Assembly (NCBI RefSeq): GCF_055900595.2
Contig: NZ_CM148325.1
Length of the DNA stretch: 64,000 nt
Direction: 5' to 3' (one strand)
Positions 7,870 to 47,343 of the stretch are shown piece by piece. Both the position numbers and the translations under genes were made by a program. The notes under the pieces are model-generated. The model was not told the origin of the DNA. It did not search any database and saw only the letters and a list, made by a program, of their open reading frames with translations. The first letter of the stretch is position 1. Each line of letters opens with the position of its first letter.

Positions 7870-7910
7870 GGCTTTACCTGTTATGTATTAAAGGGACTAT
7901 TATACATATT

Positions 7911-9750: not shown

Positions 9751-9763
9751 ATCCTTTTAATGC

Positions 9764-9782
9764 AAATGATAATCATTGTCAA
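9764..9782. promoter_or_regulatory. Fur-box-like operator overlapping a TTGACA -35 element
   Basis: aaatgataatcattgtcaa matches the Fur consensus GATAATGATAATCATTATC at 15 of 16 aligned positions; on the minus strand it overlaps TTGACA. Confidence 0.5.
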
Positions 9783-11985: not shown

Positions 11986-12219
11986 TTAAGTTGTGGAAGA
12001 ACAGTTCTGCCCCGCCTGCTTCTCTCCTTTCAGAAGCCAGTATGTTGCCATGCCTCGCCTTAATGGAGAGCGCTGAACCACACCTTCTTTTTCCAGTAAT
12101 AACAGGTAATAGCGTGCCTGATAATCCGTTACCGCCAGCGCCTCCGCAATTTCTGCGGTTTTCCCTCCATTATGCCTGTTCAGAAATTCCAGTATTTCAT
12201 TCTTCATATATTCACTCAT
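11986..12219 (-). CDS. papI: Pap fimbrial phase-variation regulator PapI (77 aa)
   Basis: [46 protein letters not shown]... matches recalled PapI; divergent from papB. Confidence 0.85.
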
Positions 12220-12399
12220 CTCACTGTAACAAAGTTTCTTCGAATAATAAAAATCATGCTCTCTGTTATCAACGGAAAGGTATTTTTATTCTCTGTGTTT
12301 GCTTTATTTGTGCAATTTAGTGAATTTGCTTTTTGTTGGCTTTATTTGATGTGTATCACATTTTGTGTGTTATTTTTCTGTGAAAAGAAAGTCCGTAAA

Positions 12400-12530
12400 A
12401 ATGCATTTAGACGATCTTTTATGCTGTAAATTCAATTCACCATGATGTTTTTATCTGAGTGTATTCTTGTTGTTAGAATTTTATTCTGGTTTAATTTTGT
12501 TTTGTGGGTTAAAAGATCGTTTAAATCAAT
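12400..12530. promoter_or_regulatory. pap phase-variation switch with two GATC sites 102 bp apart
   Basis: GATC at 12413-12416 (acgatctttta) and 12515-12518 (aaagatcgttta) in the papI-papB intergenic region; spacing matches the known Dam/Lrp switch. Confidence 0.75.
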
Positions 12531-12623
12531 ATTTACAACATAAAAAACTAAATTTAACTTATTGCGTGAAGAGTATTTCCGGGCCGGAAGCATATATCCA
12601 GGGGCCCGACAGAAGGGGGAAAC

Positions 12624-12937
12624 ATGGCGCATCATGAAGTCATCAGTCGGTCAGGAAATGCGTTTTTGCTGAATATACGCGAGAGCGTGCTGTTGCTCGG
12701 CTCTATGTCTGAAATGCATTTTTTTTACTGATAGGTATTTCTTCTATTCACAGTGACAGGGTCATTCTGGCTATGAAGGACTATCTGGTAGGTGGGCACT
12801 CCCGTAAGGAGGTCTGCGAGAAATACCAGATGAATAATGGGTATTTCAGTACAACACTGGGGAGACTTATACGGCTGAATGCTCTTGCAGCAAGGCTTGC
12901 ACCTTATTATACAGATGAGTCATCGGCATTTGACTAA
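12624..12937 (+). pseudogene. papB: papB, frameshifted in a poly-T tract
   Basis: Starts MAHHEVISRSGNAFLLNIRESVLL...SEMHFF then a stop after the T-run at 12719-12726; the downstream frame still encodes ...VILAMKDYLVGGHSRKEVCEKYQMNNGYFSTTLGRLIRLNALAARLAPYYTDESSAFD; length is 1 nt short of an intact frame. Confidence 0.8.
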
Positions 12938-13144
12938 ATTATGGCATTCCGGAGTTTCTGGAAGATAAAAAAAGAAGCCCTTGTCAGAAAGCAGACAGGT
13001 TATATCAGTATTCTGTCGATAAATAACCTGCCCTGAAAATACGAGAATATTATTTGTATTGATCTGGTTATTAAAGGTAATCGGGTCATTTTAAATTGCC
13101 AGATATCTCTGGTGTGTTCAGTAATGAAAAAGAGGTTGTTATTT

Positions 13145-13686
13145 ATGATTAAGTCGGTTATTGCCGGTGCGGTAGCTATGGCAGTGGTGTCTTTTGGTGT
13201 AAATGCTGCTCTAACTACTCCACAGGGGCAGGGTAGAGTAACCTTTAACGGAACTGTTGTTGATGCTCCATGCAGCATTTCTCAGAAATCAGCTGATCAG
13301 TCTATTGATTTTGGACAGCTTTCAAAAAGCTTCCTTCAAGCAGGAGGCGTATCCAAACCAATGAATTTAGATATTGAATTGGTTAATTGTGATATCACTT
13401 CATTTAAGGGGGGGGAGGAGTCTCGGCAGCAAAAAAAGGGACTGTGAAGCTGGCTTTTAGTGGTCCAAGGGTTTCTGGTCATAATGAGGAGTTAGATACC
13501 AGCGGGGGGACAGGTACTGCGATTGTAGTTCAGGCTGCAGGTAAAAACGTTTCTTTCGATGGCACAGAAGGTGATGCTAATACCCTGAAAGATGGTGATA
13601 ATGTGCTGCATTATACTGCGATTGTTAAGAAGTCGTCAGCCAATAATGCCCAAGTCACTGAGGGTGCTTTTTCTGCAGTCGCAACC
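13145..13686 (+). pseudogene. papA: papA major pilin, frameshifted and truncated near its 3' end by IS1
   Basis: Two track ORFs in different frames (13112..13447, 13444..13713) together read as PapA (MIKSVIAGAVAMAVVSFGVNAA...NVLHYTAIVKKSS...TEGAFSAVA); frame break near 13405-13440; coding sequence runs straight into the IS1 left end at 13687. Confidence 0.8.
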
Positions 13687-13741
13687 GGTGATGCTGCCAA
13701 CTTACTGATTTAGTGTATGATGGTGTTTTTGAGGTGCTCCA

Positions 13742-14017
13742 GTGGCTTCTGTTTCTATCAGCTGTCCCTCCTGTTCAGCTACTGACGGGGTGGTGCGTAA
13801 CGGCAAAAGCACCGCCGGACATCAGCGCTATCTCTGCTCTCACTGCCGTAAAACATGGCAACTGCAGTTCACTTACACCGCTTCTCAACCCGGTACGCAC
13901 CAGAAAATCATTGATATGGCCATGAATGGCGTTGGATGCCGGGCAACAGCCCGCATTATGGGCGTTGGCCTCAACACGATTTTACGTCACTTAAAAAACT
14001 CAGGCCGCAGTCGGTAA
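13742..14017 (+). CDS. insA: IS1 InsA
   Basis: 91 aa [30 protein letters not shown]... Confidence 0.9.
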
Positions 14018-14439
14018 CCTCGCGCATACAGCCGGGCAGTGACGTCATCGTCTGCGCGGAAATGGGCGAACAGTGGGGCTATGTCGGGGCTAAATCGCGC
14101 CAGCGCTGGCTGTTTTACGCGTATGACAGGCTCCGGAAGACGGTTGTTGCGCACGTATTCGGTGAACGCACGATGGCGACGCTGGGGCGTCTTATGAGCC
14201 TGCTGTCACCCTTTGACGTGGTGATATGGATGACGGATGGCTGGCCGCTGTATGAATCCCGCCTGAAGGGAAAGCTGCACGTAATCAGCAAGCGATATAC
14301 GCAGCGAATTGAGCGGCATAACCTGAATCTGAGGCAGCACCTGGCACGGCTGGGACGGAAGTCGCTGTCGTTCTCAAAATCGGTGGAGCTGCATGACAAA
14401 GTCATCGGGCATTATCTGAACATAAAACACTATCAATAA
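13936..14439 (+). CDS. insB: IS1 InsB (made as InsAB' by frameshift)
   Basis: 167-aa track ORF overlapping insA in the -1 frame. Confidence 0.9.
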
Positions 14440-14710
14440 GTTGGAGTCATTACCTACAACGTTTATCGACCTCACACGAACAACGATGGTTTACCGCCTT
14501 GCTTACATGAAGAAAAGTGGAAACAGGTTATTCCGGTGTCCTGATTTTGTGAACCACTACAATAATCCTTTTTCACAGACTTGTCAGCAGCCAGCATTTA
14601 TGTTCTTTTACCTGCGGGAATTTATCCGTCTGCCTGTCGGGACTACTCTGTCATACAGAAATCAGGTAGGAATAAATTGTAGTGGAAAGTCGATGTTTAC
14701 CGGATGACTG

Positions 14711-15262
14711 ATGCGCGCTTGTACACAGACAGTGTGTTTCAGTAATATGGAGAATAATGAAATGAATAACACAGACACATTAGAAAAAATAATCAGACAC
14801 CAAAAAAACAAAGACCCCGCATATCCCTTTCGGGAACATTTGTTGATGCAGCTCTGTATTCGCACAAATAAAAGAATGCAGGATAATATATCTGAATTTC
14901 TGGGGGTGTATGGAATAAATCACTCAGCATATATGGTTCTCACCACATTATTCGCAGCGGAGAACCATTGTCTGTCACCTTCAGAGATAAGCCAGAAACT
15001 TCAGTTTACCAGAACTAATATTACCCGCATTACAGATTTTTTAGAAAAAGCCGGATATGTAAAAAGGACGGATAGCAGGGAGGATCGCCGTGCTAAAAAA
15101 ATCAGTCTGACATCTGAAGGTATGTTTTTTATTCAGAGGCTCACTCTTGCACAAAGCATGTATCTGAAAGAAATCTGGGATTATCTGACCCATGATGAAC
15201 AGGAACTGTTTGAAGTCATTAATAAAAAGTTACTGGCACATTTTTCTGATGCCAGCTCATAA
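14711..15262 (+). CDS. papX: MarR-family regulator PapX/SfaX-like (183 aa by track; start may be the internal MENNEMNN)
   Basis: MarR-type wHTH; sequence ...TDTLEKIIRHQKNKDPAYPFREHLLMQLCIRTNKR... matches recalled PapX; sits where the 3' end of a pap operon would be. Confidence 0.75.
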   Translation: MRACTQTVCFSNMENNEMNNTDTLEKIIRHQKNKDPAYPFREHLLMQLCIRTNKRMQDNISEFLGVYGINHSAYMVLTTLFAAENHCLSPSEISQKLQFTRTNITRITDFLEKAGYVKRTDSREDRRAKKISLTSEGMFFIQRLTLAQSMYLKEIWDYLTHDEQELFEVINKKLLAHFSDASS

Positions 15263-15728
15263 AGTGCGAAATATCTGAGGATGCTGGATAGCTTCAGGCA
15301 AGAGAATAATGATTCTTGCAGATGTGTTTTTCCGGATACAAAAACAAAAGTAAAAAATTGCAGCGCCAGGCCACCTTTCAAAGCAGGGAGGCCTGTACCG
15401 CGTCGAAAATTTCAGCCAGTTAATGTAATTGTCTGAACCAGGCACTTCGCCCGGGCAGGAGAAGGAGCGTGGTTGCGGTCATCCTGTATACTGAAGTCGT
15501 TATGAAGGAATAATACAAATAATTGCCCGTTTTCTCTGTACGATAGAGGCAGGTGTGTATGATTGCATTACTATGTTTTTGTGATATAAAAAACTAAATG
15601 GTGAGATATGCATTTTAAAATATAACAAAAATCACCATGAAATAAGAATAATTATCCACGGAGAACATAAACTGCAGACTGTTACAATGCATGCTGTTCA
15701 TCTTGACAATGTCGGTAATGACTCCAAC

Positions 15729-16232
15729 TTATTGATAGTGTTTTATGTTCAGATAATGCCCGATGACTTTGTCATGCAGCTCCACCGATTTTGAGAACGA
15801 CAGCGACTTCCGTCCCAGCCGTGCCAGGTGCTGCCTCAGATTCAGGTTATGCCGCTCAATTCGCTGCGTATATCGCTTGCTGATTACGTGCAGCTTTCCC
15901 TTCAGGCGGGATTCATACAGCGGCCAGCCATCCGTCATCCATATCACCACGTCAAAGGGTGACAGCAGGCTCATAAGACGCCCCAGCGTCGCCATCGTGC
16001 GTTCACCGAATACGTGCGCAACAACCGTCTTCCGGAGCCTGTCATACGCGTAAAACAGCCAGCGCTGGCGCGATTTAGCCCCGACATAGCCCCACTGTTC
16101 GCCCATTTCCGCGCAGACGATGACGTCACTGCCCGGCTGTATGCGCGAGGTTACCGACTGCGGCCTGAGTTTTTTAAGTGACGTAAAATCGTGTTGAGGC
16201 CAACGCCCATAATGCGGGCTGTTGCCCGGCAT
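15729..16232 (-). CDS. insB: IS1 InsB (copy B)
   Basis: Identical to copy A InsB. Confidence 0.9.
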
Positions 16233-16426
16233 CCAACGCCATTCATGGCCATATCAATGATTTTCTGGTGCGTACCGGGTTGAGAAGCGGTGTAAGTGAA
16301 CTGCAGTTGCCATGTTTTACGGCAGTGAGAGCAGAGATAGCGCTGATGTCCGGCGGTGCTTTTGCCGTTACGCACCACCCCGTCAGTAGCTGAACAGGAG
16401 GGACAGCTGATAGAAACAGAAGCCAC
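16151..16426 (-). CDS. insA: IS1 InsA (copy B)
   Basis: Identical to copy A InsA. Confidence 0.9.
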
Positions 16427-16955
16427 TGGAGCACCTCAAAAACACCATCATACACTAAATCAGTAAGTTGGCAGCATCACCCAATCTGCTGACAGACGAA
16501 GATAATGAACCCGTTATGGTTTTTAACGGAGAGAGGAATGTACTGGCAGACAGTCTGAAACCACAGCCTCTGATTCTTCCGGTCAAGGGAAAATAAGCGT
16601 AATGTTCATCACCAGATTATGTACGATGAGTTTTCCACTGTTTATAGCAATTATCTTGCTAATAACCAGACAGGAGTAACCAGACCAACCGAAAACACCG
16701 GGAAGGTGATTACCCGCTGGCAGAGGAAATCCGGTTTTTTTTGATGTCAGCCATAACGTGTTTGACAATAAAGCATCATGAAAGGGTGTTAATGAGTCCA
16801 TGGGATAATTCATAAAAATAATTTACTGTGTTATCCTTTTCAAAAGAAATATTCAGAAGATAACCCCTGGCTGACAACCAGGGGAAGGGGGCATTAACAG
16901 TGTTATTATTGGTGAATAAATTATTACTTGTGTGCAGGATACACTAATGCAATAT

Positions 16956-18029
16956 CTACTGATACTGTATGCCAGTATGTTTCATGCCTGCCGCTGAAAA
17001 CGGCAATATCCAGGGCCAGATATATTCACCATTCATATTTCTGCATTTCTGTACAATTTTCTCAGAAAGCGTCTCATCAATTCTTTCACGCAACTTCTCC
17101 TGCTGTCTTAAAATACTTTCGCATATTTCGAAATCATCTTCCTGCATCAGCATTTCGGCGCATTTAATGATTTCTGCCCGTTCATGCAGCACAGAGGAAT
17201 GATTATAGAGCCAGTTTACAAACAGCAATGCTTCCGGATATTGCCCCCATAACGGGTGGTATGTGGCATAATAATCTTCGGCAGTATCCGGACCGCCTGA
17301 AAAGTTATGCCATACAGCAAGTGGAAATGGATGCAGATTTCCGCACAGTATTTCTGCGATGTAAGTATTTGCCGCAAAGCCGCGACGAAATGCAGTTGCA
17401 GCTTTTACCAGTTCCCCATTAAGAAAATGCAGAAGGCCGAGTTCATACCAGTAAGGTGAAAATTCATCTGCATGTTCCTGCAGTATATGGCGTGCCTGTT
17501 CATGAGCGCCAGTGCGTAACAGTTCCGGTCCCAGTAGCCAGCGTGCACCATGATTATCTTCGGGATTGTAATCCAGTATTTTTTCAATGAGCATGATGGC
17601 ATCCTGATGACGCTGTAAATGTGCATTTGCCAGGATTGCCGCATAGAGGGCACGAAGAAAAGGTCGGTTGTCAGGATGTATCCAGATGATTCTGCCACTG
17701 AAACCTTCAGGGATAAGACGATTGCCAATTGCCAGCCCTTTAAGGGCAGCATTCAGCGCCTTACGCGGGGCATTCTGCTCCAGAAATACGTATGCCAAGT
17801 GAGCGTGTACATCAATAAAGTCATTCTCCTGTCGGGCAAGGCGCCTGAGTTTGTTGATGTAACTTGTTTCGCTGATTTCATCCGCATCGTATGCATCAAT
17901 CAGTTCTTCAAACTCATCCAGCAACGAGCCAAACCAGGTTTCCGGAAATATGAAACAGCCCTGGTTATCGTTCACTTCAAAGCGTAATTTGCCAGTCATA
18001 TTCTGAACCTGTAAAAAAGGATGGACCAT
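16956..18029 (-). CDS. Hypothetical protein with TPR-like helical repeats (357 aa by track; alternative start at 17999)
   Basis: Long ORF with repeated amphipathic helix pairs (...ALNAALKGLAIGNRL..., ...LRALYAAILANAHLQRHQDAIMLIEKILDYNPED...); I do not recognise the family. Confidence 0.6.
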   Translation of the reverse strand: MVHPFLQVQNMTGKLRFEVNDNQGCFIFPETWFGSLLDEFEELIDAYDADEISETSYINKLRRLARQENDFIDVHAHLAYVFLEQNAPRKALNAALKGLAIGNRLIPEGFSGRIIWIHPDNRPFLRALYAAILANAHLQRHQDAIMLIEKILDYNPEDNHGARWLLGPELLRTGAHEQARHILQEHADEFSPYWYELGLLHFLNGELVKAATAFRRGFAANTYIAEILCGNLHPFPLAVWHNFSGGPDTAEDYYATYHPLWGQYPEALLFVNWLYNHSSVLHERAEIIKCAEMLMQEDDFEICESILRQQEKLRERIDETLSEKIVQKCRNMNGEYIWPWILPFSAAGMKHTGIQYQ

Positions 18030-18254
18030 AACCTGCAGGCTATAAAAATTGTGATGCCTGGCATCGGTGTCCTTTTATTGTCCGGGATTAACGTTGCCCA
18101 TGATAATACAGTGAATTCTGTTCTGTGGTAAGACGTTGAGTTATTGAATGAGAACCTCAGCCTGGCTGATGGTTCCGCCGGCATAAAAAAGAAATTGATT
18201 GAGGCGGGTGCTCTTCCCCTTAAGAGGAAGAGCATGTGTGTAAATGGCGTTCAG

Positions 18255-19520
18255 TCACCTTTTCAGTGGATTGTTAACTTTTGCATATTCAAACGGACTG
18301 ATACACTCCTCCCTGTTTGCATCCAGAAAATCTGCCCACCATTGCAGCATAAGCCGACGTTCTTCCAGATGTTCTGCTTTATGAATATACGCGGCACGTA
18401 CTCCGTTGCGCTCCTGATGACTCATCTGACGTTCAACCGCATCTCTTGACCATAAGCCGGATTCAATCAATGCACTGCACGCCATCGCCCGGAATCCATG
18501 GCCACAGACTTCCTTGGTTGTGTCATACCCCATCACTCTGAGGGCCTTATTTACGGTATTTTCACTGATTGGTTTACGTGGGTCGTGTGCTCCCGTAAAG
18601 ATCAGACCATTTTCACCTGCCCATGTCTGAAGTTCTGCCAGTATGGCTACAGCCTGTTGGCTGAGTGGCACAAGATGTGGTGTTCGCATCTTGGAGCCCC
18701 GGTATGAAAATTTTACGCCTGGCAGAGGTTCGCGTTCGGCTGGAATAGTCCACATGGCATTGTCAATATCAATTTCAGACCAGCGGGCATATCTGAGTTC
18801 ACTGGAACGAATAAAAACCAGTAAATTCAGCATAACTGCCAGTCGGGTGACAGGCTGGCCTTTATAACCGTCAATACGCGACAGAAGTTCAGGCAGGCGT
18901 GAAAGATCCAGAGCAGGGCGATGCTGGCGTTTTACCGTGGTCAATGCACCAGCCATATCCAGAGCCGGGTTATATCTGATGATGCCAGACTGTACGGCAT
19001 AACGCATTACAGCAGATATTCTTTGCTGCAGACGACTGGCGATTTCATAAATTTGTTTAACTTCTGCAGCACGAACAGGGATAAGCAGATCCGGGGTACT
19101 GAGTGTTGTGATATCCCGGTTGCCGATAAAGGGGAAAACGTGAGTCTCGAGGCTTTTGAGTACTTTATCGCTGTGTGATTGTGCCCATTGTTTATTACTG
19201 GCATGCCAGCGTCGTGCAATATGTTCAAAAGAGAGCTGTAAATCAGGGACTACTTTTTTAGCTCTTTTCTGTTCGCAAGGGTCAACCCCCTCCGAAATCA
19301 GTTTTCGGGCCTCATCCCGTTTTGTACGAGCTTCGGAGAGAGAAACTTCCGGATACACACCAAGTGCCAGGGTTTTCTCCTTACCCAGAATACGATAACG
19401 GAGACGCCAGTAACGGGAACCATTAGGATGTACCAGCAGGAACATGCCAGCCCCGTCAGTGAGTTTATAAGCCTTGTCAGTGGGCTTTGCAGCCCGGATT
19501 TTTGCGTCAGTCAGTGCCAT
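18255..19520 (-). CDS. P4-family tyrosine integrase (421 aa)
   Basis: N-terminus MALTDAKIRAAKPTDKAYKLTDGAGMFLLVHPNGSRYWRLRYRILGKEK typical of P4/CP4-type integrases; C-terminal catalytic region present. Confidence 0.9.
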   Translation of the reverse strand: MALTDAKIRAAKPTDKAYKLTDGAGMFLLVHPNGSRYWRLRYRILGKEKTLALGVYPEVSLSEARTKRDEARKLISEGVDPCEQKRAKKVVPDLQLSFEHIARRWHASNKQWAQSHSDKVLKSLETHVFPFIGNRDITTLSTPDLLIPVRAAEVKQIYEIASRLQQRISAVMRYAVQSGIIRYNPALDMAGALTTVKRQHRPALDLSRLPELLSRIDGYKGQPVTRLAVMLNLLVFIRSSELRYARWSEIDIDNAMWTIPAEREPLPGVKFSYRGSKMRTPHLVPLSQQAVAILAELQTWAGENGLIFTGAHDPRKPISENTVNKALRVMGYDTTKEVCGHGFRAMACSALIESGLWSRDAVERQMSHQERNGVRAAYIHKAEHLEERRLMLQWWADFLDANREECISPFEYAKVNNPLKR

Positions 19521-19680
19521 AGTTCAGCCTTCTGAATGCGTTAAAGAGGGTACAAATTCTGTCGAACTGGGGTATACCCGCAATTATACCCACACAATGG
19601 GGTTGATGTGGGGGGAATCTGGTTGAGTTCGGTAGAATTGATTTGGAGGCAGAACGCTTAAATTGTGGCGTTCTGAAACG

Positions 19681-19708
19681 AAAAACGGACCTCCGTGGAG
19701 GTCCGTTT
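19681..19708. terminator. Strong hairpin terminator between the tRNA-Phe remnant and the integrase
   Basis: aaaaacggacctcc gtgg aggtccgttt: 11-12 bp perfect stem with T-runs on both sides. Confidence 0.6.
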
Positions 19709-19717
19709 ATATGAATT

Positions 19718-19736
19718 TGGTGCCCGGACTCGGAAT
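19718..19736 (-). repeat. 19-bp copy of the tRNA-Phe 3' end (attachment-site core repeat); no full tRNA
   Basis: Minus strand reads ATTCCGAGTCCGGGCACCA, identical to the 3' end of tRNA-Phe (pheV/pheU, recalled); upstream sequence does not continue as tRNA. Confidence 0.6.
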
Positions 19737-19983
19737 GAAACTGGTTATATAACCAATTGTTTTGTATCGACTGTTTTGTCTTTGTTCTTTTTGGGGCCAC
19801 CAATGAGGCCCCCATGTGCAATTCGAATTCTTTTGACGCTATAATCCCTCTTTTTTGTGCTTTGTTGTAATCATTTTGTCTGGTTCGATATGCTGAATCG
19901 CGGAATCGAAGTAACAACAAAATACAGAGATTTATAAAATACCTGGCTACCTGTGTTAGGGAGCGTTAACGCACAGATTTTGT

Positions 19984-20310
19984 TTATGGCTGCCAGAAAT
20001 GATCTGATGGTTTGTCGTCTGGCTCTGCAAGTACCCTGTTGATATCCCGGGAACCATGAACGATACGTTCGATACGAACTTCAGTATCCAGTACCCTGAA
20101 CAGCAGAAGGTAACGACCATACGAACAACCTCTGATCCCTGCCCCTAACTCGGGTCTTTCTCTGTAGAGTACTGGCGATTCGGCTATCAACAGACATTGT
20201 TGGTAAAGCTCTTCGGTAAAACTGATTGCACGGACAGGATTATCCTGAGCGATCCAGTCACCTATAGCTTCAAGATCGTGTTCTGCTAATGGTGAAACAG
20301 TCAGTTTCAT
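19984..20310 (-). CDS. ParE/RelE-superfamily toxin (108 aa)
   Basis: Small basic protein immediately downstream of, and overlapping by 4 bp, a ParD-like antitoxin gene; ParE-like sequence by recall. Confidence 0.75.
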   Translation of the reverse strand: MKLTVSPLAEHDLEAIGDWIAQDNPVRAISFTEELYQQCLLIAESPVLYRERPELGAGIRGCSYGRYLLLFRVLDTEVRIERIVHGSRDINRVLAEPDDKPSDHFWQP

Positions 20311-20570
20311 ATTGGCTGTTCACCTTCTGCCATCTTTTTGTATTTGTGCGTCAGTCGCCCGAATACCTCTTCAGCACTTTTACTTTCACCGCTGTTGATG
20401 CCTGCGGTAACGGCGCTCTGGAGTGATTCAAGCTTTATCTGCTGTTCCCGTTCTTCCAGAGCACGAAGTCCGGCACGAATGACTTCACTTGTATTGTTAT
20501 ACCGACCACTTTCTATTTGTTCGCGGATAAACGTTTCAAAGTAAGGACTGAGGGATACACTGGTAGGCAT
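20307..20570 (-). CDS. ParD-family antitoxin (87 aa, RHH fold)
   Basis: MPTSVSLSPYFETFIREQIESGRYNNTSEVIRAGLRALEEREQQ is a typical ParD N-terminus. Confidence 0.75.
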   Translation of the reverse strand: MPTSVSLSPYFETFIREQIESGRYNNTSEVIRAGLRALEEREQQIKLESLQSAVTAGINSGESKSAEEVFGRLTHKYKKMAEGEQPI

Positions 20571-20641
20571 GGTGATTTTCTCGCCGATTGATTACTATCA
20601 ATTAATAATAGTTAATATTCGCGAATTGTAAAATACCTCTT

Positions 20642-21508
20642 TTATGCCTTGCGGCTTTTGTTCACTGTGCTTGCCAGGGCTTCCGGGTAGTGTCTGACAA
20701 TAATATCATTAAGCCTGTCAACCAGTTCTGGTTTCCTGAACGTGATGTGCGCGGAGCCCTTCTTAAAGTATCTGATGCTGAACATCTCATCTTCATAGTC
20801 CTCTTTACCCTGAACAGACCGGATGTGCTCATTCAGATGAATGGTGATGTTTTCCCGGTTGTCGGGGATCGGTTTGCCGCTGAACAGATACAGCATTCTT
20901 TCCAGGTCGGCAAGTCGATCTGCCTGTTGCCCGGTGATAAGATGAAACCCCCACCGGTCCCACCTCACCAGGTTGTTGACGATAATTTTACTGCCAAATT
21001 TACAGGGTGAATTGTTTTCGTAATTCCAGCTCAGTCCCCTGAAAACATTGATCACCCCACGCTCAAACACTTCATCTTTGTTCTGGTGCAGTTGTTCAAA
21101 TGTGCTCAGAATGTTCGCTTCACTGATTTCCGGAAAATTATCGTATTCCAGTGACCGGTACCATGTATCACGGGCCTGCGCATCCATTAATGACAGCATC
21201 CCGGAACGTTGCATCAGGTCACGCCAGATTTCGCGATCGAGATTGCGGGTGATGGCTTTCATTGCTGTTTCCGGTTTATCCATGAGCCAGCATCCGCAGC
21301 GAAAATCCTGTTTCATCGCCCAGTCCCGTGCGCTTTTACCACCAATGCTTTTTGTCAGTACTGAGATTTCAGTCAGTTGCCGGATAAGCGTTTCGGTTTG
21401 TTGCAGTGCTGCATTCCGTACCGTCACAACGTGTCGGATACTGGTGGAGCAGATAACGTCCGTATTCCCGGTGACCACTTCCGGATGGGAGATTGTGATG
21501 TTTGACAT
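20642..21508 (-). CDS. Hypothetical protein, 288 aa (possibly DUF4942-type, common at the ends of CP4-like islands)
   Basis: Track ORF with coding-like composition; family assignment from memory only. Confidence 0.6.
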   Translation of the reverse strand: MSNITISHPEVVTGNTDVICSTSIRHVVTVRNAALQQTETLIRQLTEISVLTKSIGGKSARDWAMKQDFRCGCWLMDKPETAMKAITRNLDREIWRDLMQRSGMLSLMDAQARDTWYRSLEYDNFPEISEANILSTFEQLHQNKDEVFERGVINVFRGLSWNYENNSPCKFGSKIIVNNLVRWDRWGFHLITGQQADRLADLERMLYLFSGKPIPDNRENITIHLNEHIRSVQGKEDYEDEMFSIRYFKKGSAHITFRKPELVDRLNDIIVRHYPEALASTVNKSRKA

Positions 21509-21592
21509 TATCGGTTTCCCTTTTGGTTTATAAACGAAAACGCCAGCCGTATTCAGGCTGGCGTCAGTGGAATGAAGTCTGGTGAGTAAGGC

Positions 21593-21790
21593 TCACCGGT
21601 TCTGTTGCAGAAGCTGCAGTTGGCGCAGGGTATGGATATCCTCCCTCGCCTGTTCAATGCAGGGCAGCAGTGCTGCCGAATCCGTTTTATCCTCATCGTT
21701 GTCAAAGATAATTCCCGATTCGCAGTCGATATTGTCCTGCAGCCACGCAATCAGAATATCCAGTGCTGTTTCCGTGGTTAATGATTTCAT
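21593..21790 (-). CDS. YeeW-like small protein
   Basis: MKSLTTETALDILIAWLQDNIDCESGIIFDNDEDK... resembles YeeW/YpjJ-type proteins that follow cbtA-type toxin genes (recall). Confidence 0.55.
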   Translation of the reverse strand: MKSLTTETALDILIAWLQDNIDCESGIIFDNDEDKTDSAALLPCIEQAREDIHTLRQLQLLQQNR

Positions 21791-21801
21791 GTTGTTCCTG
21801 G

Positions 21802-22290
21802 TTACCAGTTGAAAGTGGGTAAACCCGGCAGGCATTCAGCGCTGGCATCCAGATGAATGAGACTGACGCCATAACGTCGGGTAAGTGTGACAACCAGACA
21901 ACGGAACGTTTTTGACAGGCCCAGGCGCTTAAGCCGCAGAACCGGGTATGACCACGCATCGGTACGTAACAGATAGCCGCTACCTGTGAAATGAATCCAT
22001 TCTGATTCACCAACGTCACTGGTCTGATGCGACAGCGAGTACAGCCAGGCGTTATCCTTTTCCGTGATATGTGCGGTACTGCAGCGTATGCCGGCAAGGG
22101 TTGCAAACGGTGGTAGTGTGCAGGTTGACTGTTGGTCGGATTCCTCCACCACGCGGAGTGAATAACCGTTTTCAGCGACCTTGTTAATCAGTTCAGTGAG
22201 ATTAACACCATCGACGTCAACGACAATTTGCCCCATGTTCAGTGCCTGCACATTAATTCTGTCGGCTTCCAGCATCAGGGAAAGTTTCAT
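21802..22290 (-). CDS. Hypothetical protein, 162 aa, start overlapping the cbtA-like stop
   Basis: Track ORF; 4-bp overlap with the upstream toxin gene suggests translational coupling; family not recognised. Confidence 0.45.
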
Positions 22291-22661
22291 CGTTTCTCCG
22301 GATGCTTACCCAGGGTAATGTTATTTACCGTTCTGTAATTGTCGCGGGTCATCAGGCCGGTCGCCCGGCGAGCCCGGAGGATATCAATACTGTTTATTAA
22401 CTGAGAGCGGGGACAAGTGCTGAATCCCGGCTGGTCGGTACGCACCAGCGCGTATTTTTCCACGAGAAAATTCACCGCATCACACAGTGAAATGCCAGCT
22501 TCAATATGCTGCTCAATCACACGTTCATCGGCGAACGGTGTGTCATTCAGTGTAAGGCCGTAATGCTGGCCCAGTAGTCGGGAGAGCAGAGTCTGCCAGA
22601 TGGTGACGGGAGACGGGCAGCTCGATGCCTCCCGTACGTGTGTATCGGGTAATGTTTTCAT
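22287..22661 (-). CDS. CbtA/YeeV/YkfI/YpjF-family type IV toxin (124 aa)
   Basis: ...[45 protein letters not shown]...[10 protein letters not shown] matches the recalled family. Confidence 0.85.
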
Positions 22662-22750
22662 ACTGAAGGTTTTCCTGATATGCAGAGATGAAAAATGGAA
22701 AAGTGGCGTGGTGAAAGCACCAGGCCGGAGCAGAAGGTTATTCCGGTGGT

Positions 22751-23119
22751 TTACTTTTTCGTTTCGGGCGTCGGATAAACAGCCAGATAAACGTAACCAC
22801 AGGAGCCGAGGGTGTCGGCTTCGCAGGTCAGCCCTTTCGCATACAGCGTGACGGTATGCTGATGTCGGGGATTCAGTTCACCGCTGGTGAGCATGAGTTC
22901 CAGTTGTTTCATCAGCAGCGGAAAGGCCTGGTCCAGATGGTATGCATCTGCGTCGCTGAAGCGGCCTCTGATACCGGCGCGGTCGGCAAGGTAATGCAGG
23001 CGGTTACCCTCCTGCACCAGACGGGCGCCAAAACAGGGCCTCACTGTGCAGGGAAGCCCCCACCAGGGGCGGTCGTGATTGTCGTCGGGATGAGTTATCC
23101 CGGAGAGTGTGTCTGACAC
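22751..23119 (-). CDS. CbeA/YeeU/YfjZ-family antitoxin (122 aa)
   Basis: [80 protein letters not shown] matches recalled YeeU. Confidence 0.85.
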
Positions 23120-23159
23120 GATAAAATCCTCTCTGAAAAGTGGTTAAGAATGGTTTAAC

Positions 23160-23801
23160 GATGACAGGTCAGCCGGTGCGCTGACCGGTTTCGGTGAAGA
23201 TGTATGCATTGATGAGAATGGCCTCATCCACAGCGGCGTCTGAGGTCATCTGGTCGTACTCGTTTTCCAGTTGACGGTACAGCCAGAAGGCCAGGTCGCG
23301 CAGGGCTTCGCTGACAGCGGCTTCCGCATCGGCTGTCATAGCCTGACCAGTCGGACTGTTCCGGGTAACAGTGATAACGGATGGCAGTAACGTCCCCGGT
23401 GGTGGATTTCAGCCTGCAGTTGCCAGAAGTTACGTTTCTGCACCGCCTGCAGGGCATCCGCGATACGATGAAGCTCACGGTTCTGCGGGGCATACTCCCG
23501 GACTCTCCTGGTTGTTGCTGACTGCCAGTGCCAGCGTCCTTCAAAACAGGCTCCGTCCCTGGCTGCAGAATCCGCTGAACCAGATGCACGGCTCTTCCAT
23601 AAACCTGCCGTTGCTGAGACGGATAACACGCTGGCAGAGGTCAATTCCGAAAATGCCACAGACCTCCCTGACGTCCTCATACACGTTTTCATACCAGTTG
23701 CTGTCAGCATGATGCTGACGGTACCCGTCGCGGGCTTTTTCCCGTGCCGGGCAGGAAAGTTCATCCAGCGTATACACTGTGATGGTGATAATTCTGCTCA
23801 T
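23160..23801 (-). pseudogene. Frameshifted gene between yeeT-like and cbeA-like genes (product unknown)
   Basis: Three overlapping track ORFs in three frames (23541..23801, 23336..23764, 23224..23589) plus a readable C-terminal peptide (...AVSEALRDLAFWLYRQLENEYDQMTSDAAVDEAILINAY...) point to one roughly 210-aa gene broken by frameshifts. Confidence 0.45.
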
Positions 23802-23815
23802 CAGAATGCCCTGAC

Positions 23816-24037
23816 TCAGTTCAGGGTGACGCTCATCAGCCGGACATACGGGCCAAAACTGTCCTTACGACGTTCTGCAAACACAGCCAGCACACCGGGA
23901 ATATCCTGCACTTCACGACCGGTATACGTTTCAGTGCTGCCGTGCCAGCGGTATTTGCCGGTACAGAACGGAAAAAGACGGGATGCAGGATGCTGTTGGT
24001 GAATACGCATGGCTTCACCACGGGTGATGATTTTCAT
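23816..24037 (-). CDS. YeeT-like protein, 73 aa (DUF-type, CP4-44 family)
   Basis: MKIITRGEAMRIHQQHP.SRLFPFCTGKYRWHGS.E.YTGREVQDIPGVLAVFAERRKDSFGPYVRLMSVTLN matches recalled YeeT. Confidence 0.8.
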   Translation of the reverse strand: MKIITRGEAMRIHQQHPASRLFPFCTGKYRWHGSTETYTGREVQDIPGVLAVFAERRKDSFGPYVRLMSVTLN

Positions 24038-24105
24038 AATGGGATACCTCTGAAGACAGAAGATAAAAGTGAAAACAGGTGTGATGTGGTTGTGACGGTG
24101 ACGGG

Positions 24106-24582
24106 TTAAAGCAGACCGTGTTCGGCAAAGGAGAATACCTGGCTGCCACCGACTATCAGATGGTCCGGCACCCGGATATCCACCAGGGCCAGCGCCTGAA
24201 CCAGACGTTCCGTAATAAGCCGGTCTGCCTTACTGGGAGTGACTTCACCGGACGGGTGGTTGTGTGCCAGTATCACGGCGGCGGCATTGTGGTACAGGGC
24301 GCGTTTAATCACTTCCCGGGGATGGACTTCCGTGCGGTTGATGGTGCCGGTGAAGAGGGTTTCACCGGCAATCAGCTGATTCTGGTTGTTCAGATACAGC
24401 ACCCGGAACTCTTCACGCTCCAGTCCCGCCATGTTCAGAATCAGCCATTCCCGTGCCGCATGCGTGGAGGTGAAGGCCACGCCGGGTTCATGAAGATGAC
24501 GGTCCAGGGTTTTCAGGGCCCGCTGAATGAGGCTGCGCTCACCGGGTGTCATCTCTCCGGGCAGAAAGGAAAGTTGTTGCAT
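24106..24582 (-). CDS. RadC-like JAB-domain protein (YeeS/YfjY/YkfG family)
   Basis: Track ORF trimmed to MQQLSFLPGEM...; HNHPSG JAMM motif present. Confidence 0.85.
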   Translation of the reverse strand: MQQLSFLPGEMTPGERSLIQRALKTLDRHLHEPGVAFTSTHAAREWLILNMAGLEREEFRVLYLNNQNQLIAGETLFTGTINRTEVHPREVIKRALYHNAAAVILAHNHPSGEVTPSKADRLITERLVQALALVDIRVPDHLIVGGSQVFSFAEHGLL

Positions 24583-24597
24583 TGTGCTTCTCTCCAT

Positions 24598-25083
24598 TCA
24601 GTCGATGATGCGCATAATGGCGCTGCATTCCGGATGCTGCAGGGCATAATCCCGCAGCCGGTAATAATGGACCGTCATGGCATAACACTCCGTACGACAG
24701 GCATGATGACTGTACGTCATCAGACAGGCAGCAATGCCGGCGGCTTCCGGGCTCATTTCAGCGCGGTTACCGTTCATGGCATTGAACAGTACCCATGTTT
24801 CGTCATCATCGTCATCCGGTTCGGGTGCCATAAATGCCCCGCCGTTGTTCAGGGTGTACAGATTCCAGATACCACCGCAGTAGTCTTCGCACAGACGGTC
24901 CATCCAGCCGAAGACACGGGGCTCCAGGGTCACCCACTGTGGAATGAGGCCAAAGTGCTGCGGCCAGAAGCTGATGCGCTGTTCATCAGGGACTATGGTG
25001 GCAACCAGCTGAGACTGGTTATTCCCTGATGCAGTAGTTACGGAAACAGAAGGTGTGGTGAAATTATGCGAAGAGGTTGTCAT
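24598..25083 (-). CDS. Anti-restriction protein (YfjX/KlcA/ArdB-like), 161 aa
   Basis: Acidic stretch PEPDDDDDETW and overall similarity to recalled YfjX/YafX-type proteins. Confidence 0.75.
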   Translation of the reverse strand: MTTSSHNFTTPSVSVTTASGNNQSQLVATIVPDEQRISFWPQHFGLIPQWVTLEPRVFGWMDRLCEDYCGGIWNLYTLNNGGAFMAPEPDDDDDETWVLFNAMNGNRAEMSPEAAGIAACLMTYSHHACRTECYAMTVHYYRLRDYALQHPECSAIMRIID

Positions 25084-25173
25084 GAGATTATTCCTTATAA
25101 AAAGTAAATGAATGGAAGACGTCCCGGGGACAGGGACAGACGTGAGCCGGACTGTACTTTCAGGGAAACGGCA

Positions 25174-25992
25174 TCAGCGCAGGCTCTCCAGCAACGTTTC
25201 CGCCATCACCCATAACGCGCGATTGAGCTTAATGTCGGTGTCAATGCTGTGAATGGCCCGGGTATGGATACGTTTTCCTTTTGCACTGCGACCGGAAATC
25301 CCGCCTTTCAGCATATTCTCCTGGATGGTCTGATAAGCACTCCACAGGTCCTTACCGTAATCCTCCCGGCGTCGTGGCGTCAGAATGTCGGCGGTGGTGA
25401 CGAGGTGATGTTCGTCACCATAACGGTAAGTCAGTGCCGCCTGTGCCAGCGCCTGGCGTGCCGGTGGCGGCAGGACCAGCGACTGCATGGCATCACGCTT
25501 TTCCTCAATCCGGTCAAAAACGCCCACCACTTCGTAAGCCCCTTCAATAACTTTCTCCACCACGTCTCCCCGGTGTGGAACACGCACTTCCCCCAGAGAC
25601 TGACCACAGACGCAGCCGTTCTGGCAGACGAACCTGAAGTAACCCGGCAGCATCTGGTAGCTGGAGGTACCGTCATGGGAGTTCAGCAGGATGATTTCAG
25701 GGACATGTTGTCCGTTTATCTCTCCGTCACGGCGCAGACGCAGCATGTGTTTGGTATACCCCCGGCGGCCCGGGTCACGTACGCGGGTCTGGCAGGCAAA
25801 GAAGGGCTGAAAGCCTTCCCGCTGCAGGCTTTCCAGCACGGTGATGGTGGGGATCCAGGTATAGTTCTCGCTTCTGGATGTGTGCTTATCTTCCCCGAAT
25901 ACGCTGGGGACGACCTGCATCAGTTCTTCGCGAGTTAAGGGGCGGTCACGGCGTATCTGGTTCGCATAACCAAAACGACTGGCTAATCGCAT
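25174..25992 (-). CDS. DUF932-family protein (YfjQ/YafZ-like), 272 aa
   Basis: Size, position between the GTPase/regulator genes and the anti-restriction gene, and recalled similarity to YfjQ. Confidence 0.7.
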   Translation of the reverse strand: MRLASRFGYANQIRRDRPLTREELMQVVPSVFGEDKHTSRSENYTWIPTITVLESLQREGFQPFFACQTRVRDPGRRGYTKHMLRLRRDGEINGQHVPEIILLNSHDGTSSYQMLPGYFRFVCQNGCVCGQSLGEVRVPHRGDVVEKVIEGAYEVVGVFDRIEEKRDAMQSLVLPPPARQALAQAALTYRYGDEHHLVTTADILTPRRREDYGKDLWSAYQTIQENMLKGGISGRSAKGKRIHTRAIHSIDTDIKLNRALWVMAETLLESLR

Positions 25993-26082
25993 GATTTGCT
26001 CCTTATGAATGAGTTAGCGATATAAATGAAAAAGCCGCGCCTCCCGGAGAAGACGCGGCCTGATGGATGAAATGAATGAGGT

Positions 26083-26316
26083 TTATTGTCTGGGAAGCCC
26101 TTCACTGGCGAGCCACGCATTAAGTTGTTTGCCGGCATCGTATTCAAAATTCCAGCACCGCCAGCGCAACTGACCTTCAGCATTGTGGATAACCAGCCGG
26201 AAATGCGTTCCCTGGTCATTTTCGATAAACACATTGCGATAAGCTGTTGTGATGGCAACCGCCTGCTCTCGAGAGAAAGGGCCTTCGGGCAATAAAACAG
26301 GGTGACAGTCCGACAT
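26083..26316 (-). CDS. Small hypothetical protein (77 aa)
   Basis: Track ORF in a gene-dense, co-directional stretch; family not recognised. Confidence 0.45.
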
Positions 26317-26321
26317 ACCGG

Positions 26322-26999
26322 CTATTTTCCGATAAATTCAACGCTGGCACCGGTGGCATTACCGTCAGCACCAACCGTGACGGTCACTTTGTCGTACGCA
26401 CGGTCTTCAGGATTGAACACTTCAAACTCAACCTTATTGCCTTTTACTTCGTAAGAGCCAAAATCAGCGGTTTCTGTTGTTTCCTCGTCATATTCCCGGG
26501 CGTATGCCTGCCGGGCAGCCTGCAGGACGGAATCTTTATTAATAGTGGTCGTCTGTTTCGGGGAAAAACCGGCAAGTGATGTGACAAATTTCGGACAGAC
26601 CTTCAGCATATCACCGCGGGTGAATTCCATTCGTACACCAAATGCCTGTAAAACGGACACATCACGCTCTGCTATGGAGTGAACGGCTTTTTTGACCATT
26701 TCCGGCGCCTGTCCGATTTCCACCTCAACAGCCCTGAATCCCGTCTGCTGATTACACATTTGTGATGTGGGGATCAGGTTACCGTTAATACTGATACGGC
26801 TGCCCAGGAGCGTCTGTACGCCATTCGGGCATCCCTGCATCAGGCCGGTAATACCAATCGTGCCATTTTTCAGCATTACCAGCGCCTGACCATCTTCCGT
26901 CATGGTCTGACACCAGCCGTTTTTGACAGCCCAGTTGCCGGCGGAGGCGGAGAATGATGCCACAGTGAACAGCAGGGGAAAAAGAGCTCTGGTATTCAT
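26322..26999 (-). CDS. Hypothetical secreted protein with signal peptide (225 aa)
   Basis: Track ORF trimmed to [25 protein letters not shown] with GAGGT RBS. Confidence 0.6.
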
Positions 27000-27146
27000 G
27001 ACTGACCTCTGAAATGAACGTATGGTGTTATTGATAATGATGGAAGGTATGCAGTGACTGTTCAGGGAATGACGTAGCCGTATATTTAGTTTTCTGTTCA
27101 ACATATTGTCTCCATACCTGTCGGGACGGCTTTGGCAGGCCGGCGA

Positions 27147-27827
27147 TCACAGGTTAAAGGTGTTGATAAGTTTATGGATGAAAGAGAAATGTGGCAGGGC
27201 GGAGATAAAACGCTCTTCAGCGACCAGACTGTGGATGTGGCCTCTCCGTTCAAACCGTTCTGATGTCAGGCTGACTGATTTGATATCTGCCAGAGGAAAG
27301 ACCTGCAGTTTTCCCTTCTGTAACGCGATCAGATACCAGCTACCGCTGTAATAAATGAGCCGGCAGGGCTCCAGTGACGGATACCATCGCTCAGCCATCA
27401 GAGAGATGTGGATACACTGTCTTATTGCCAGGATGAGTTGCGAGAAACACTCGGGGAACGTTGCAGTGATATCCGGCGCCGGTAGCCAGATAAGGCAGGG
27501 AGAGGGCTCCTGGTTGTCGGTAAGACAGGTTATCAGTCGTCCGTTCCGGAGCGGAAGTATCCGTGCGATCCCCGTATTCTGTATAAAAGAAAGCATTTCA
27601 GGGATCGCACCTGGGCTGCTCTGTCGTCTGAGGCTGTACCTGCCATTTCTGTACTCTAAATCCAGGTGAACCAGACGCTGATGAAAATCGCGCTGTAAAG
27701 TACGTTCTGTAACGCCAAATTCATCTGACAGTGTTTTTAGTGACAGAGATTCTCCGGCCATCAGTCGGCTGATAATGAGTGATAAGCGAACCGCCAGGCG
27801 ATCATGCCGGGAACGATTATCAGACAT
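27147..27827 (-). CDS. YfjR-like HTH transcriptional regulator (226 aa)
   Basis: N-terminal HTH (...SLKTLSDEFGVTERTLQRDF...) plus C-terminal WYL-like domain; position as in CP4-57 (recall). Confidence 0.7.
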   Translation of the reverse strand: MSDNRSRHDRLAVRLSLIISRLMAGESLSLKTLSDEFGVTERTLQRDFHQRLVHLDLEYRNGRYSLRRQSSPGAIPEMLSFIQNTGIARILPLRNGRLITCLTDNQEPSPCLIWLPAPDITATFPECFSQLILAIRQCIHISLMAERWYPSLEPCRLIYYSGSWYLIALQKGKLQVFPLADIKSVSLTSERFERRGHIHSLVAEERFISALPHFSFIHKLINTFNL

Positions 27828-28029
27828 AGATGTGCACTCCGTAAGAAAACATCTTTTATTTCATAATGTTATTATGCATCATGATGTTGAAAGGATGTGT
27901 CGCATCCGAATAATCAGGAATAAAATGCAGCAGAAAAAATATTCCTTTAATTATCTGATTTTTAAGCAGGGTTTCATAAAAAGAAGAATGCTTGTTAATC
28001 CAGCGACACATCCTGTCGGCGTGAGTGTG

Positions 28030-28914
28030 TCAGAACAGACGATCCCACAGTGTGACCAGCAGGTGGATAATGCGGTCCCGGGCTTTACGCAGAAGCTGTA
28101 ACATCCAGGCCGGAAAGCTGAACCGGGCAACGGCGTCGTCAAAGCTTTTCCCGATGGTTTCACCAAAAGTCTGTTGTGCGTGTTTCCGGGCCTGTTCAGA
28201 GCGGTTTTCCCCCCGGATATGTGAATAAACTGCGCTGGTTGCCTGTGGTGGCAGTGCGTGGATCATCAGCGACACAAACGCCGGAAGGTTCCAGCCGACA
28301 GATGCGGCAACGGAGAGTACCGGAAATGATGACGGGAACAGGGTGGCCACCCGGGCTGTTACTGTCGCCAGTGAGAGTTCCTGCTGACGGGACGGGCATT
28401 TTTCTGTGTCGTTCCATTCTTCAGCAGGAAACACGCGATCGGCATGGCTGAGAATAAACAGAAAGCGCGAGGGATCTGCGCCCTCATTCAGTAAAAACTG
28501 ATGCATGGCAATATCGGCAGCATACGCACGTTCATCAGCCCGCAGGATCCAGATAATCAGATCCAGTTCCGGTAGCAGCTGACGATAAAGTGTCCGGTAT
28601 TCCTGATCATGCTGCGGTGTTTCACCAATGCCGGGCAGATCGACCAGCGTCATTCTGCGTTCACCGAGCTGCAGAGTAAGACGATGAGCCTGGCGGGTGC
28701 AGCCGTTCAGGGGATGCGTGGCGCAGATACGGGACTGAAAAATGGCATTACACAGACTGCTTTTGCCGGTACCGGATTTACCCATAATGCCAATCACGGG
28801 CTCGTAATGAATAACATCGTGGAGATGTTCAAGGATTTTCTGGCGAATTTCTTCAGGAAGAAACGTCAGATATGATTTTACTTGTGCAGAGAGGGAAGAA
28901 TGGCTGAATGACAT
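28030..28914 (-). CDS. YfjP/YeeP/YkfA-family GTPase (294 aa)
   Basis: P-loop GIMGKSGTGKSSL and DLPG switch motif; recalled CP4-island GTPase family. Confidence 0.85.
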   Translation of the reverse strand: MSFSHSSLSAQVKSYLTFLPEEIRQKILEHLHDVIHYEPVIGIMGKSGTGKSSLCNAIFQSRICATHPLNGCTRQAHRLTLQLGERRMTLVDLPGIGETPQHDQEYRTLYRQLLPELDLIIWILRADERAYAADIAMHQFLLNEGADPSRFLFILSHADRVFPAEEWNDTEKCPSRQQELSLATVTARVATLFPSSFPVLSVAASVGWNLPAFVSLMIHALPPQATSAVYSHIRGENRSEQARKHAQQTFGETIGKSFDDAVARFSFPAWMLQLLRKARDRIIHLLVTLWDRLF

Positions 28915-29027
28915 ACCGGTATCCTGTTGATTTCACTGAACCGGATCACAGTAATCCGGTTTATCATTCAGGTAATATGGGCGTATAATTATTTCCATTT
29001 TTAATGGAATATATTCGGAGGTAATAA

Positions 29028-47337: not shown

Positions 47338-47343
47338 AACTGA

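Follow-up and report, generated by a model that had tools for sequence, protein, structure and literature searches.

The distal end of a CP4-like module, in a 64,000-nucleotide stretch of DNA (hereafter the window; NCBI RefSeq assembly GCF_055900595.2, contig NZ_CM148325.1), carries between positions 19984 and 21508 an overlapping antitoxin-toxin gene pair of the ParDE type and the gene of a 288-aa protein with a DUF4942 domain. Comparisons with complete Escherichia coli genomes indicate that the pair lies in a 776-bp cassette, recently spread onto divergent island backbones, at a position where other strains hold different cargo, and that the DUF4942 gene belongs to the core of the module rather than to the toxin-antitoxin system. 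The units on which this analysis centres are the following.

19984-20310, minus strand: parE, toxin gene, 108 aa, RelE/ParE fold, assigned to the ParE branch (PF05016, E=7.9e-18)
20307-20570, minus strand: parD, antitoxin gene, 87 aa; DNA-binding part N-terminal (ribbon-helix-helix), toxin-binding part C-terminal (PF03693, E=3.9e-17)
20642-21508, minus strand: open reading frame of the 288-aa DUF4942 protein
19909-20684, minus strand: ParDE cassette, 776 bp, which contains parD and parE with their promoter/operator region and 3' untranslated region and, from the DUF4942 open reading frame, its final 43 nt (~14 codons); delimited by homology breaks and a divergence step
19737-19908, no strand assigned: conserved island terminus, 172 bp, with a GGGGCC(N8)GGCCCC hairpin, common to ParDE and AbiE-type islands (alignments to loci L004 and L006)

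The antitoxin gene precedes the toxin gene, the stop codon of parD and the start codon of parE sharing 4 bp (ATGA). The toxin matches the Pfam profile ParE_toxin (PF05016) with 65.3 bits for a cut-off of 23, over aa 5-89 and profile positions 3-88 of 89, and the antitoxin matches both ParD_antitoxin (PF03693; 62.9 bits, cut-off 21) and NCBIfam TIGR02606 (96.9 bits, cut-off 46.2). All eight PDB sequence matches of the toxin are of ParE type (6x0a, 7ycs (PrpT), 3kxe, 5ceg, 5cw7, 5czf, 7r5a and 8c24), the closest solved relative being the Mesorhizobium ParE of 6x0a, a chimeric ParDE complex (E=2.8e-13), while the remaining matches range from 1e-4 to 1e-2. Relatives of the antitoxin in the PDB include proteins of ParD type, namely 7b22 (Vibrio cholerae ParD2, 5e-11), 3kxe_C (Caulobacter ParD1, 1e-10), 8c24_C (Mycobacterium tuberculosis ParD1) and 7ycs_D, as well as the CopG/Arc/MetJ-type antitoxins of 6x0a and 5ceg. 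Because the structural matches are all ParE-type, the score against the RelE/StbE model TIGR02385 (24.3 bits) falls under its cut-off of 27.9 and the partner is a ParD and not a RelB, the toxin is assigned to the ParE branch, that of the gyrase poisons, and not to the RelE branch of ribosome-dependent RNases. Judged from its sequence, the pair is an ordinary, canonical type II ParD/ParE operon that has already been annotated, its ParE and ParD being identical to RefSeq WP_000779483.1 and WP_001143297.1, respectively. An overlapping pair of this type had been claimed from the letters alone (hereafter the sequence-only reading), and the positions of the open reading frames, the ATGA overlap, the Pfam and NCBIfam scores and the PDB relatives all bear it out. 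The literature searched gives only passing mentions of this E. coli ParDE and contains no experimental study of it.

Of 5426 complete E. coli genomes, 471 contain in full the 905 bp that extend from the tRNA-Phe repeat bounding the island (described below) as far as the DUF4942 stop codon, and ~646 others match this 905-bp query over its first 172 bp only (19737-19908), at ~92% identity. The cassette is annotated as a toxin/antitoxin pair and intact in the sampled genomes. Two alternative cargos were found at the same place: a DUF6088 gene with an AbiEii/AbiGii toxin gene, for example in ST131-type and Nissle-type strains (complete in 653 genomes), and an EAL-domain gene, located downstream of DUF4942 in ATCC 11775 and 440 other genomes (441); O157:H7 has no cargo downstream of DUF4942. 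Pairwise comparisons, in which window positions 19909-20684 were set against the variant loci L004 (4173-5599) and L005 (1380-2985), locate the break in homology at 19908/19909 on the left and at ~20678-20690 on the right, the latter within the last ~14 DUF4942 codons, in every variant. The position downstream of DUF4942 can thus be described from these alignments as a three-way variable cargo site (ParDE, AbiE-type, EAL) with a fixed junction. The remark of the sequence-only reading that stabilisation or defence modules are typical of such a site agrees with the DUF6088/AbiEii pair held there by other E. coli.

The amount of divergence changes sharply across the right boundary, as observed among eight ParDE-bearing loci:

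parE: 0-2 of 327 nt differ
parD: 0-3 of 264 nt differ
promoter region: 0-1 of 71 nt differ
DUF4942 tail (last 43 nt): 0-1 of 43 nt differ
DUF4942 body: 39-84 of 824 nt differ (4.7-10.2%)
DUF957 region: 13-50 of ~282 nt differ

Divergence within the cassette does not exceed 1.2% across the eight loci, it rises by a sharp step at 20685, about 10-fold, and the ParE and ParD protein sequences are identical in most of the loci sampled. As a nearly identical cassette sits on backbones that have diverged by 4.7-10.2%, we conclude that its spread is recent, with homologous recombination in its conserved flanks as the presumed route. A site-specific recombination motif at the junctions was rejected, the four-way alignment containing no shared motif on the cargo side, and the junction resembles the border of a block exchanged by homologous recombination. 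On the left flank, the hairpin (GGGGCC-N8-GGCCCC, at 19795-19816) is followed ~25 nt further by a perfect TATAAT and is identical in ParDE-type and AbiE-type islands; it could be a recombination or regulatory site. Related ParDE pairs, with 40-85% protein identity, are spread through Enterobacterales, and pairs with ~75% nucleotide identity are carried by Pantoea megaplasmids and by a single Salmonella plasmid.

The cassette and its flank are bounded by a short repeat, exact and found once in the window for 0.02 occurrences expected by chance.

19718-19736, minus strand: 19-bp direct repeat TGGTGCCCGGACTCGGAAT, the reverse complement of the 3' end of tRNA-Phe

This repeat, 247 bp from the parE stop codon, is an attR-type boundary with the CP4-like module to its right and a second island, of the Nissle/CFT073 GI-pheV type, to its left. 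The left island carries aerobactin, P fimbriae and an integrase (18255-19520), and window positions 1-19739 match, with 100% identity, the pheV island found in E. coli Nissle 1917 and in strains related to it. To the right extends the "yee" module, with genes for a GTPase, a WYL/HTH protein, DUF932, an antirestriction protein, RadC/JAB, DUF987, CbeA and CbtA, continued by DUF5983, DUF957, DUF4942, ParD and ParE; DUF3987 is also among the CP4-like module families of the window. Since the left part matches the pheV island and the CP4-like module lies to the right of the repeat, two islands stand in tandem at tRNA-Phe with the repeat between them, ParDE being the last coding unit of the inner one. 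The gene set and the tRNA-Phe boundary repeat qualify the surrounding element as a CP4-like (P4-type) tRNA-integrated island. The sequence-only reading had set the pair at the distal end of such a module, about 250 bp from the attachment (att) repeat, in agreement with the measured distance, the single tRNA-Phe match and the gene set. The order integrase-repeat-ParE-ParD-DUF4942-DUF957 and onward is also annotated in other complete genomes, and ParDE-ended islands are found at both pheV (yghD or kps flank) and pheU (cadC flank). No intact tRNA is present in the 64-kb window, nor an integrase of the CP4-like island itself, the sole nearby integrase being that of the neighbouring GI-pheV island; the proximal end of the CP4-like island either lies outside the window or has been rearranged.

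Three candidate elements of a regulatory region were recognized upstream of parD, within the 71-nt intergenic region that separates it from DUF4942 and that differs by at most 1 nt among the eight loci.

20605-20632, minus strand: sigma-70-like promoter for parDE, TTTACA-16 nt-TATTAT, 10 of 12 consensus matches (consensus match only)
20587-20602, minus strand: perfect 6-4-6 palindrome ATTGAT-AGTA-ATCAAT, immediately following the -10 hexamer, a candidate operator for ParD (read from the sequence)
20616-20627, minus strand: second, imperfect palindrome AATTCGCGAATa, in the promoter spacer, a candidate operator (sequence reading and repeat search)

The putative promoter and the palindromes form the layout expected for autorepression by ParD, from which we infer an operator function. 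Further upstream, the space between the DUF957 and DUF4942 genes holds one more candidate signal.

21539-21565, minus strand: terminator-like hairpin of 10 pairs followed by TTCGTTT (consensus match only)

Rfam also gives, over the hairpins of this space (21532-21597, minus strand), a low-scoring match with Esr41, a small RNA of EHEC, which was rejected as probable noise (20 bits for a gathering score of 102, E=0.78); no Esr41-like match occurs at the equivalent place in four related loci.

The best explanation of the locus is likely a ParD-repressed, addictive ParDE cassette beside a DUF4942 gene that belongs separately to the module. In such a system, the ribbon-helix-helix domain of a ParD dimer would bind the palindromes of the parDE promoter and repress the operon, while the C-terminal part of ParD would wrap and neutralise ParE. 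ParD would be degraded faster than ParE, so that an arrest of ParD synthesis, for instance on loss of the cassette or of the excised island, would leave free ParE, which would trap DNA gyrase on DNA; double-strand breaks would result, the SOS response would be induced and the cell would stop growing or die. The cassette would in this way bias against the loss of the DNA that carries it. Several of these steps have been described for members of the family: ParE is reported to inhibit gyrase (PMC11925232, PMC10899793), the ParD of RK2 is reported to be degraded by ClpAP (PMC6191456), and a ParE-family pair, ParE_SO/CopA_SO, is reported to maintain the excised CP4So prophage of Shewanella (PMC8706911). 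The toxicity, gyrase target, operator binding and stabilising effect of the present pair are attributed to it by resemblance to this family.

Several observations weigh against this explanation or at least narrow it. The promoter scan was not enriched overall, with 3 sites found for 3.3 expected by shuffling. Only 0-3 substitutions were counted per gene in parE and parD, too few for the ratio of non-synonymous to synonymous substitution rates (dN/dS) to show purifying selection. Some chromosomal ParE proteins are described as weakly toxic or even protective, such as ParE1 of Pseudomonas aeruginosa (PMC6368863). DUF4942 has no PDB relative by sequence or by fold, nor any structural or experimental hint of an activity. 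Finally, the integrase and intact tRNA of the CP4-like island are absent from the window and, if this island cannot be excised, killing after excision would be moot and addiction at the level of the cassette alone would be left.

Among the alternatives, the one that survives best would see in the cassette a purely selfish hitch-hiker, which relies on its conserved flanks, the 172-bp terminus and the DUF4942 body, to spread by homologous recombination and owes its persistence to addiction alone, bringing a benefit neither to the island nor to its host. This is a possible account, to which we give the lesser credence. The recent horizontal spread on which it relies is indicated by the low divergence of the cassette on more diverged backbones and by its occurrence at both pheV and pheU, beside different neighbours. 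It is nevertheless compatible with island stabilisation, to which the same molecular mechanism would lead, and the distribution of the cassette cannot separate the two.

A main role in abortive infection appears unlikely. A phage infection would in this case shut down transcription in the host or set off proteolysis, ParD would be lost, and ParE would kill or arrest the cell before the end of the phage cycle. In support of such a role, the end of the island is a variable-cargo position, and the occupant found there in 653 genomes, DUF6088/AbiEii, belongs to a family named after abortive infection. However, annotations of the inspected loci mark the AbiEii gene as frameshifted, and the third occupant, an EAL-domain gene (cyclic di-GMP type), is not a defence gene. 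Moreover, an anti-phage phenotype of ParDE was not found in the literature searched, and the PADLOC-DB v2 models gave no match at E<=0.01 to ParE, ParD or DUF4942, which led us to reject the membership of these three proteins in a known anti-phage defence system.

It is likewise improbable that ParE is an attenuated or non-toxic protein acting as a reversible modulator of gyrase, for instance in quinolone or stress tolerance, rather than as a killer, and the residues of the toxin bear on this alternative. The sequence-only reading had counted on substitutions at catalytic residues as a sign of an inactive toxin; this does not apply to ParE, which is a gyrase poison and not an enzyme, and for which conserved catalytic residues are not known (bioRxiv 10.1101/2025.07.24.666505). 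In the same study, systematic mutagenesis of V. cholerae ParE2 identified one key Trp, in the alpha1-alpha2 loop, which is not conserved family-wide, as well as a well-conserved His near the C-terminus, and an Asn is reported for the Mesorhizobium ParE at the position equivalent to the key Trp (bioRxiv 10.1101/2025.07.24.666505). In the window ParE, the HMMER alignment places N24 opposite the Trp of the helix alpha1-alpha2 loop of Caulobacter ParE1, which, with the lack of conservation of the ParE2 Trp, leaves room for attenuation. Published ParE toxins are also reported to range from lethal to mild or even protective and to fall into distinguishable toxicity classes, one P. aeruginosa ParE protecting against anti-gyrase antibiotics (PMC6813445, PMC6368863). 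Against attenuation stand the retention of a tightly coupled antitoxin and the near-invariance of the 71-nt autoregulatory region over the eight loci, as expected if the toxin needs control. The Mesorhizobium ParE of 6x0a, closest solved relative of the window toxin, also argues in this direction, its ParDE system having reportedly been studied as an active toxin. In an alignment of 32 members of the closest family, all 6 invariant and all 21 nearly invariant columns are kept in the window ParE, and its H85 falls at the position of the His that other ParE proteins conserve; the protein ends with a C-terminal tail of 16 residues, acidic and Pro-rich. ParE thus displays no apparent sign of decay, and its toxicity is not assertable from sequence. 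As a whole, the data cannot separate the abortive-infection, selfish-cassette and attenuated-ParE alternatives.

The last alternative, in which DUF4942, ParD and ParE would form a single three-gene system, DUF4942 serving as regulator, chaperone or second effector, can draw on the adjacency of DUF4942 and parD on the same strand, 71 bp apart, on the lack of a detected terminator between them and on the location of the cassette boundary inside the last 14 DUF4942 codons, but it is extremely improbable and effectively refuted as DUF4942 occurs in 3864 of the 5426 E. coli genomes (71%) for 471 with ParDE, is followed at the same position elsewhere by AbiE-type genes, by EAL genes or by none, and is separated from the cassette by the ~10-fold change in divergence, while parDE has its own promoter-like site and palindromes and the plasmid-borne DUF4942 genes have no ParDE neighbour. 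Its distribution, its alternative neighbours and the divergence step thus characterize DUF4942, as far as comparative evidence goes, as a core gene of the module, independent of ParDE, and the sequence-only reading, which lists the 288-aa protein together with the pair, needs correction on this point: no functional tie links them.

The same reading had placed the 288-aa protein only tentatively in DUF4942, and a domain search confirms this placement by a match to the full length of the profile (PF13708; 223.6 bits for a cut-off of 25, E=2.2e-66; aa 87-276, profile positions 1-190 of 190). The genomes that carry the domain have a median of 2 copies and up to 8, and the wider family numbers ~2100 representatives at the 50% identity level. 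The AlphaFold2 model of the protein has a predicted local distance difference test score (pLDDT) of 87. As to the function of DUF4942/YdiA, the literature searched gives passing mentions only. Some sources label the family "restriction methylase". A methyltransferase identity of the 288-aa protein was rejected: Pfam gives DUF4942 as its only domain, and no PDB methyltransferase matches it by sequence or by fold. A class I methyltransferase domain (MTS) is present, C-terminal to DUF4942, only in fused relatives of 468 aa, and one PHROG is annotated as a DNA methyltransferase; the "methylase" name probably derives from these fusions and from this PHROG. The gene itself is mosaic, since its codons 1-60 (21329-21508) are far more divergent than the remainder: 25-30 of them differ from all six sampled alleles, by both synonymous and non-synonymous changes, for ~8-9 differing codons in the rest of the gene with respect to the two closest alleles.

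Homologues of the DUF4942 protein with ~30-39% identity were found on 4347 of 72,556 plasmids, 91% of which are predicted to be conjugative. On an IncI1 plasmid, the homologue is one small gene away from the relaxase genes nikA/nikB, on the side of the origin of transfer (oriT), in an ArdA-PsiB-PsiA block; on a pOXA-48-like IncL plasmid, it accompanies RadC/JAB, an antirestriction protein and a single-stranded DNA-binding protein (SSB) in a block ending at mobA/traI; and distant homologues adjoin KorA-IncC-KorB or KfrA. Samuel et al. 2024 (PMC11541004) described gene families enriched in plasmid leading regions, and DUF4942 corresponds to gene families 24 and 76 in the supplementary gene-family table (file 3) of that study. 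DUF4942 is therefore a member of a known, uncharacterised plasmid leading-region family, named YdiA/YgfB. The module at 21509-29000, with the DUF4942 gene (DUF932, antirestriction, RadC/JAB, toxin-antitoxin, DUF4942), resembles the leading regions of the IncL and IncI1 plasmids (L017, L018) in the kinds of genes it holds, which suggests that this part of the island is a block of leading-region or anti-defence type. By analogy with these plasmids, we tentatively propose that DUF4942 may help incoming DNA to establish itself or may protect it, a role that is possible without being the likelier outcome. In a broader and rather doubtful extension, the outer CP4-like block as a whole (DUF932, antirestriction, RadC/JAB, CbeA/CbtA, DUF4942 and the swappable cassette of toxin-antitoxin, Abi or EAL type) might be the chromosomal counterpart of a conjugative-plasmid leading region, DUF4942/YdiA might descend from the non-catalytic partner domain found in a methyltransferase family and serve as a factor of establishment or anti-defence, and the position that follows it might be a dedicated exchange point for addiction and defence cargo, with its junction in the last 14 DUF4942 codons.

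Other features of the window were recorded outside this module. A 357-aa tetratricopeptide-repeat protein, encoded at 16956-18029 (minus strand), adjoins the GI-pheV integrase and has no PADLOC match. Rfam matches above the gathering score correspond to STnc490, two ALIL pseudoknots (IS3-type frameshift signals) and AS-pc02 (9870-9992, 10490-10606, 11657-11835 and 59647-59710), and are consistent with insertion-sequence (IS) elements in the island. No complete E. coli genome holds the region 44000-64000, a mosaic, as one contiguous piece, and at most 45% of it is covered at a single place. It includes an IS66-type element and the open reading frame of a 1371-aa S6-family (SPATE-type) autotransporter at 53616-57731.

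The ParDE pair was already known: both proteins are exact RefSeq entries, hundreds of E. coli genomes carry the annotation of such a pair, and the mechanism of its family is well studied. The present analysis adds the recognition of the pair as a discrete cassette of recent spread at a three-way cargo site, the separation of DUF4942 from the toxin-antitoxin system, the lack of support for its "methylase" label and its tie to plasmid leading regions. The cassette provides a clean example of spread onto divergent pheV/pheU backbones and bears on the upkeep of pathogenicity islands, such as the adjoining aerobactin/P-fimbriae island, and the variable cargo position is defined with a precise junction. 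Moreover, the link between a common E. coli island gene and a large uncharacterised plasmid leading-region family makes DUF4942 a reasonable target for anti-defence or establishment assays.

Compared with known systems, the island copy of DUF4942 resembles its plasmid relatives by the same Pfam domain over its full length, a size of ~270-290 aa and antirestriction and RadC/JAB neighbours; it differs from them in being only 30-39% identical, chromosomal and with no known oriT nearby. The ParDE pair shares with the solved systems of Mesorhizobium opportunistum (6x0a, 5ceg), Caulobacter crescentus (ParD1-ParE1, 3kxe), V. cholerae (ParD2-ParE2, 7r5a/7b22) and M. tuberculosis (ParDE1, 8c24) the same two families, the gene order, the ribbon-helix-helix N-terminus of ParD, a toxin of ~100 aa, the alpha-hairpin and beta-sheet pattern of ParE and its conserved His near the C-terminus. 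The similarity is moderate, however, and the window ParE adds its 16-residue acidic, Pro-rich tail and lacks the critical Trp of V. cholerae ParE2. Like PaaR2-PaaA2-ParE2 of E. coli O157:H7 (5cw7, 5czf), the pair comprises a ParE-family toxin on an E. coli mobile element, but the toxin match is weak (E=5e-3), the window ParD matched ParD and CopG/Arc/MetJ types and no PaaA2 chain, and the locus has no third regulator gene, the neighbouring DUF4942 being unrelated. The AbiE-type pair (DUF6088 with an AbiEii/AbiGii nucleotidyltransferase toxin) is a two-gene, toxin/antitoxin-like module at exactly the same position, with the 172-bp terminus on one side and the 3' end of DUF4942 on the other, composed of unrelated protein families and annotated as frameshifted where it was inspected. 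The closest functional precedent for the maintenance of an island is ParE_SO/CopA_SO of CP4So in Shewanella oneidensis, described as a ParE-family pair on a P4-like (CP4) integrative element (PMC8706911). Its antitoxin is named CopA_SO and not ParD, and the system belongs to another genus (PMC8706911); it is by analogy with CP4So that we infer a stabilising role of the ParDE pair at the end of the CP4-like island.

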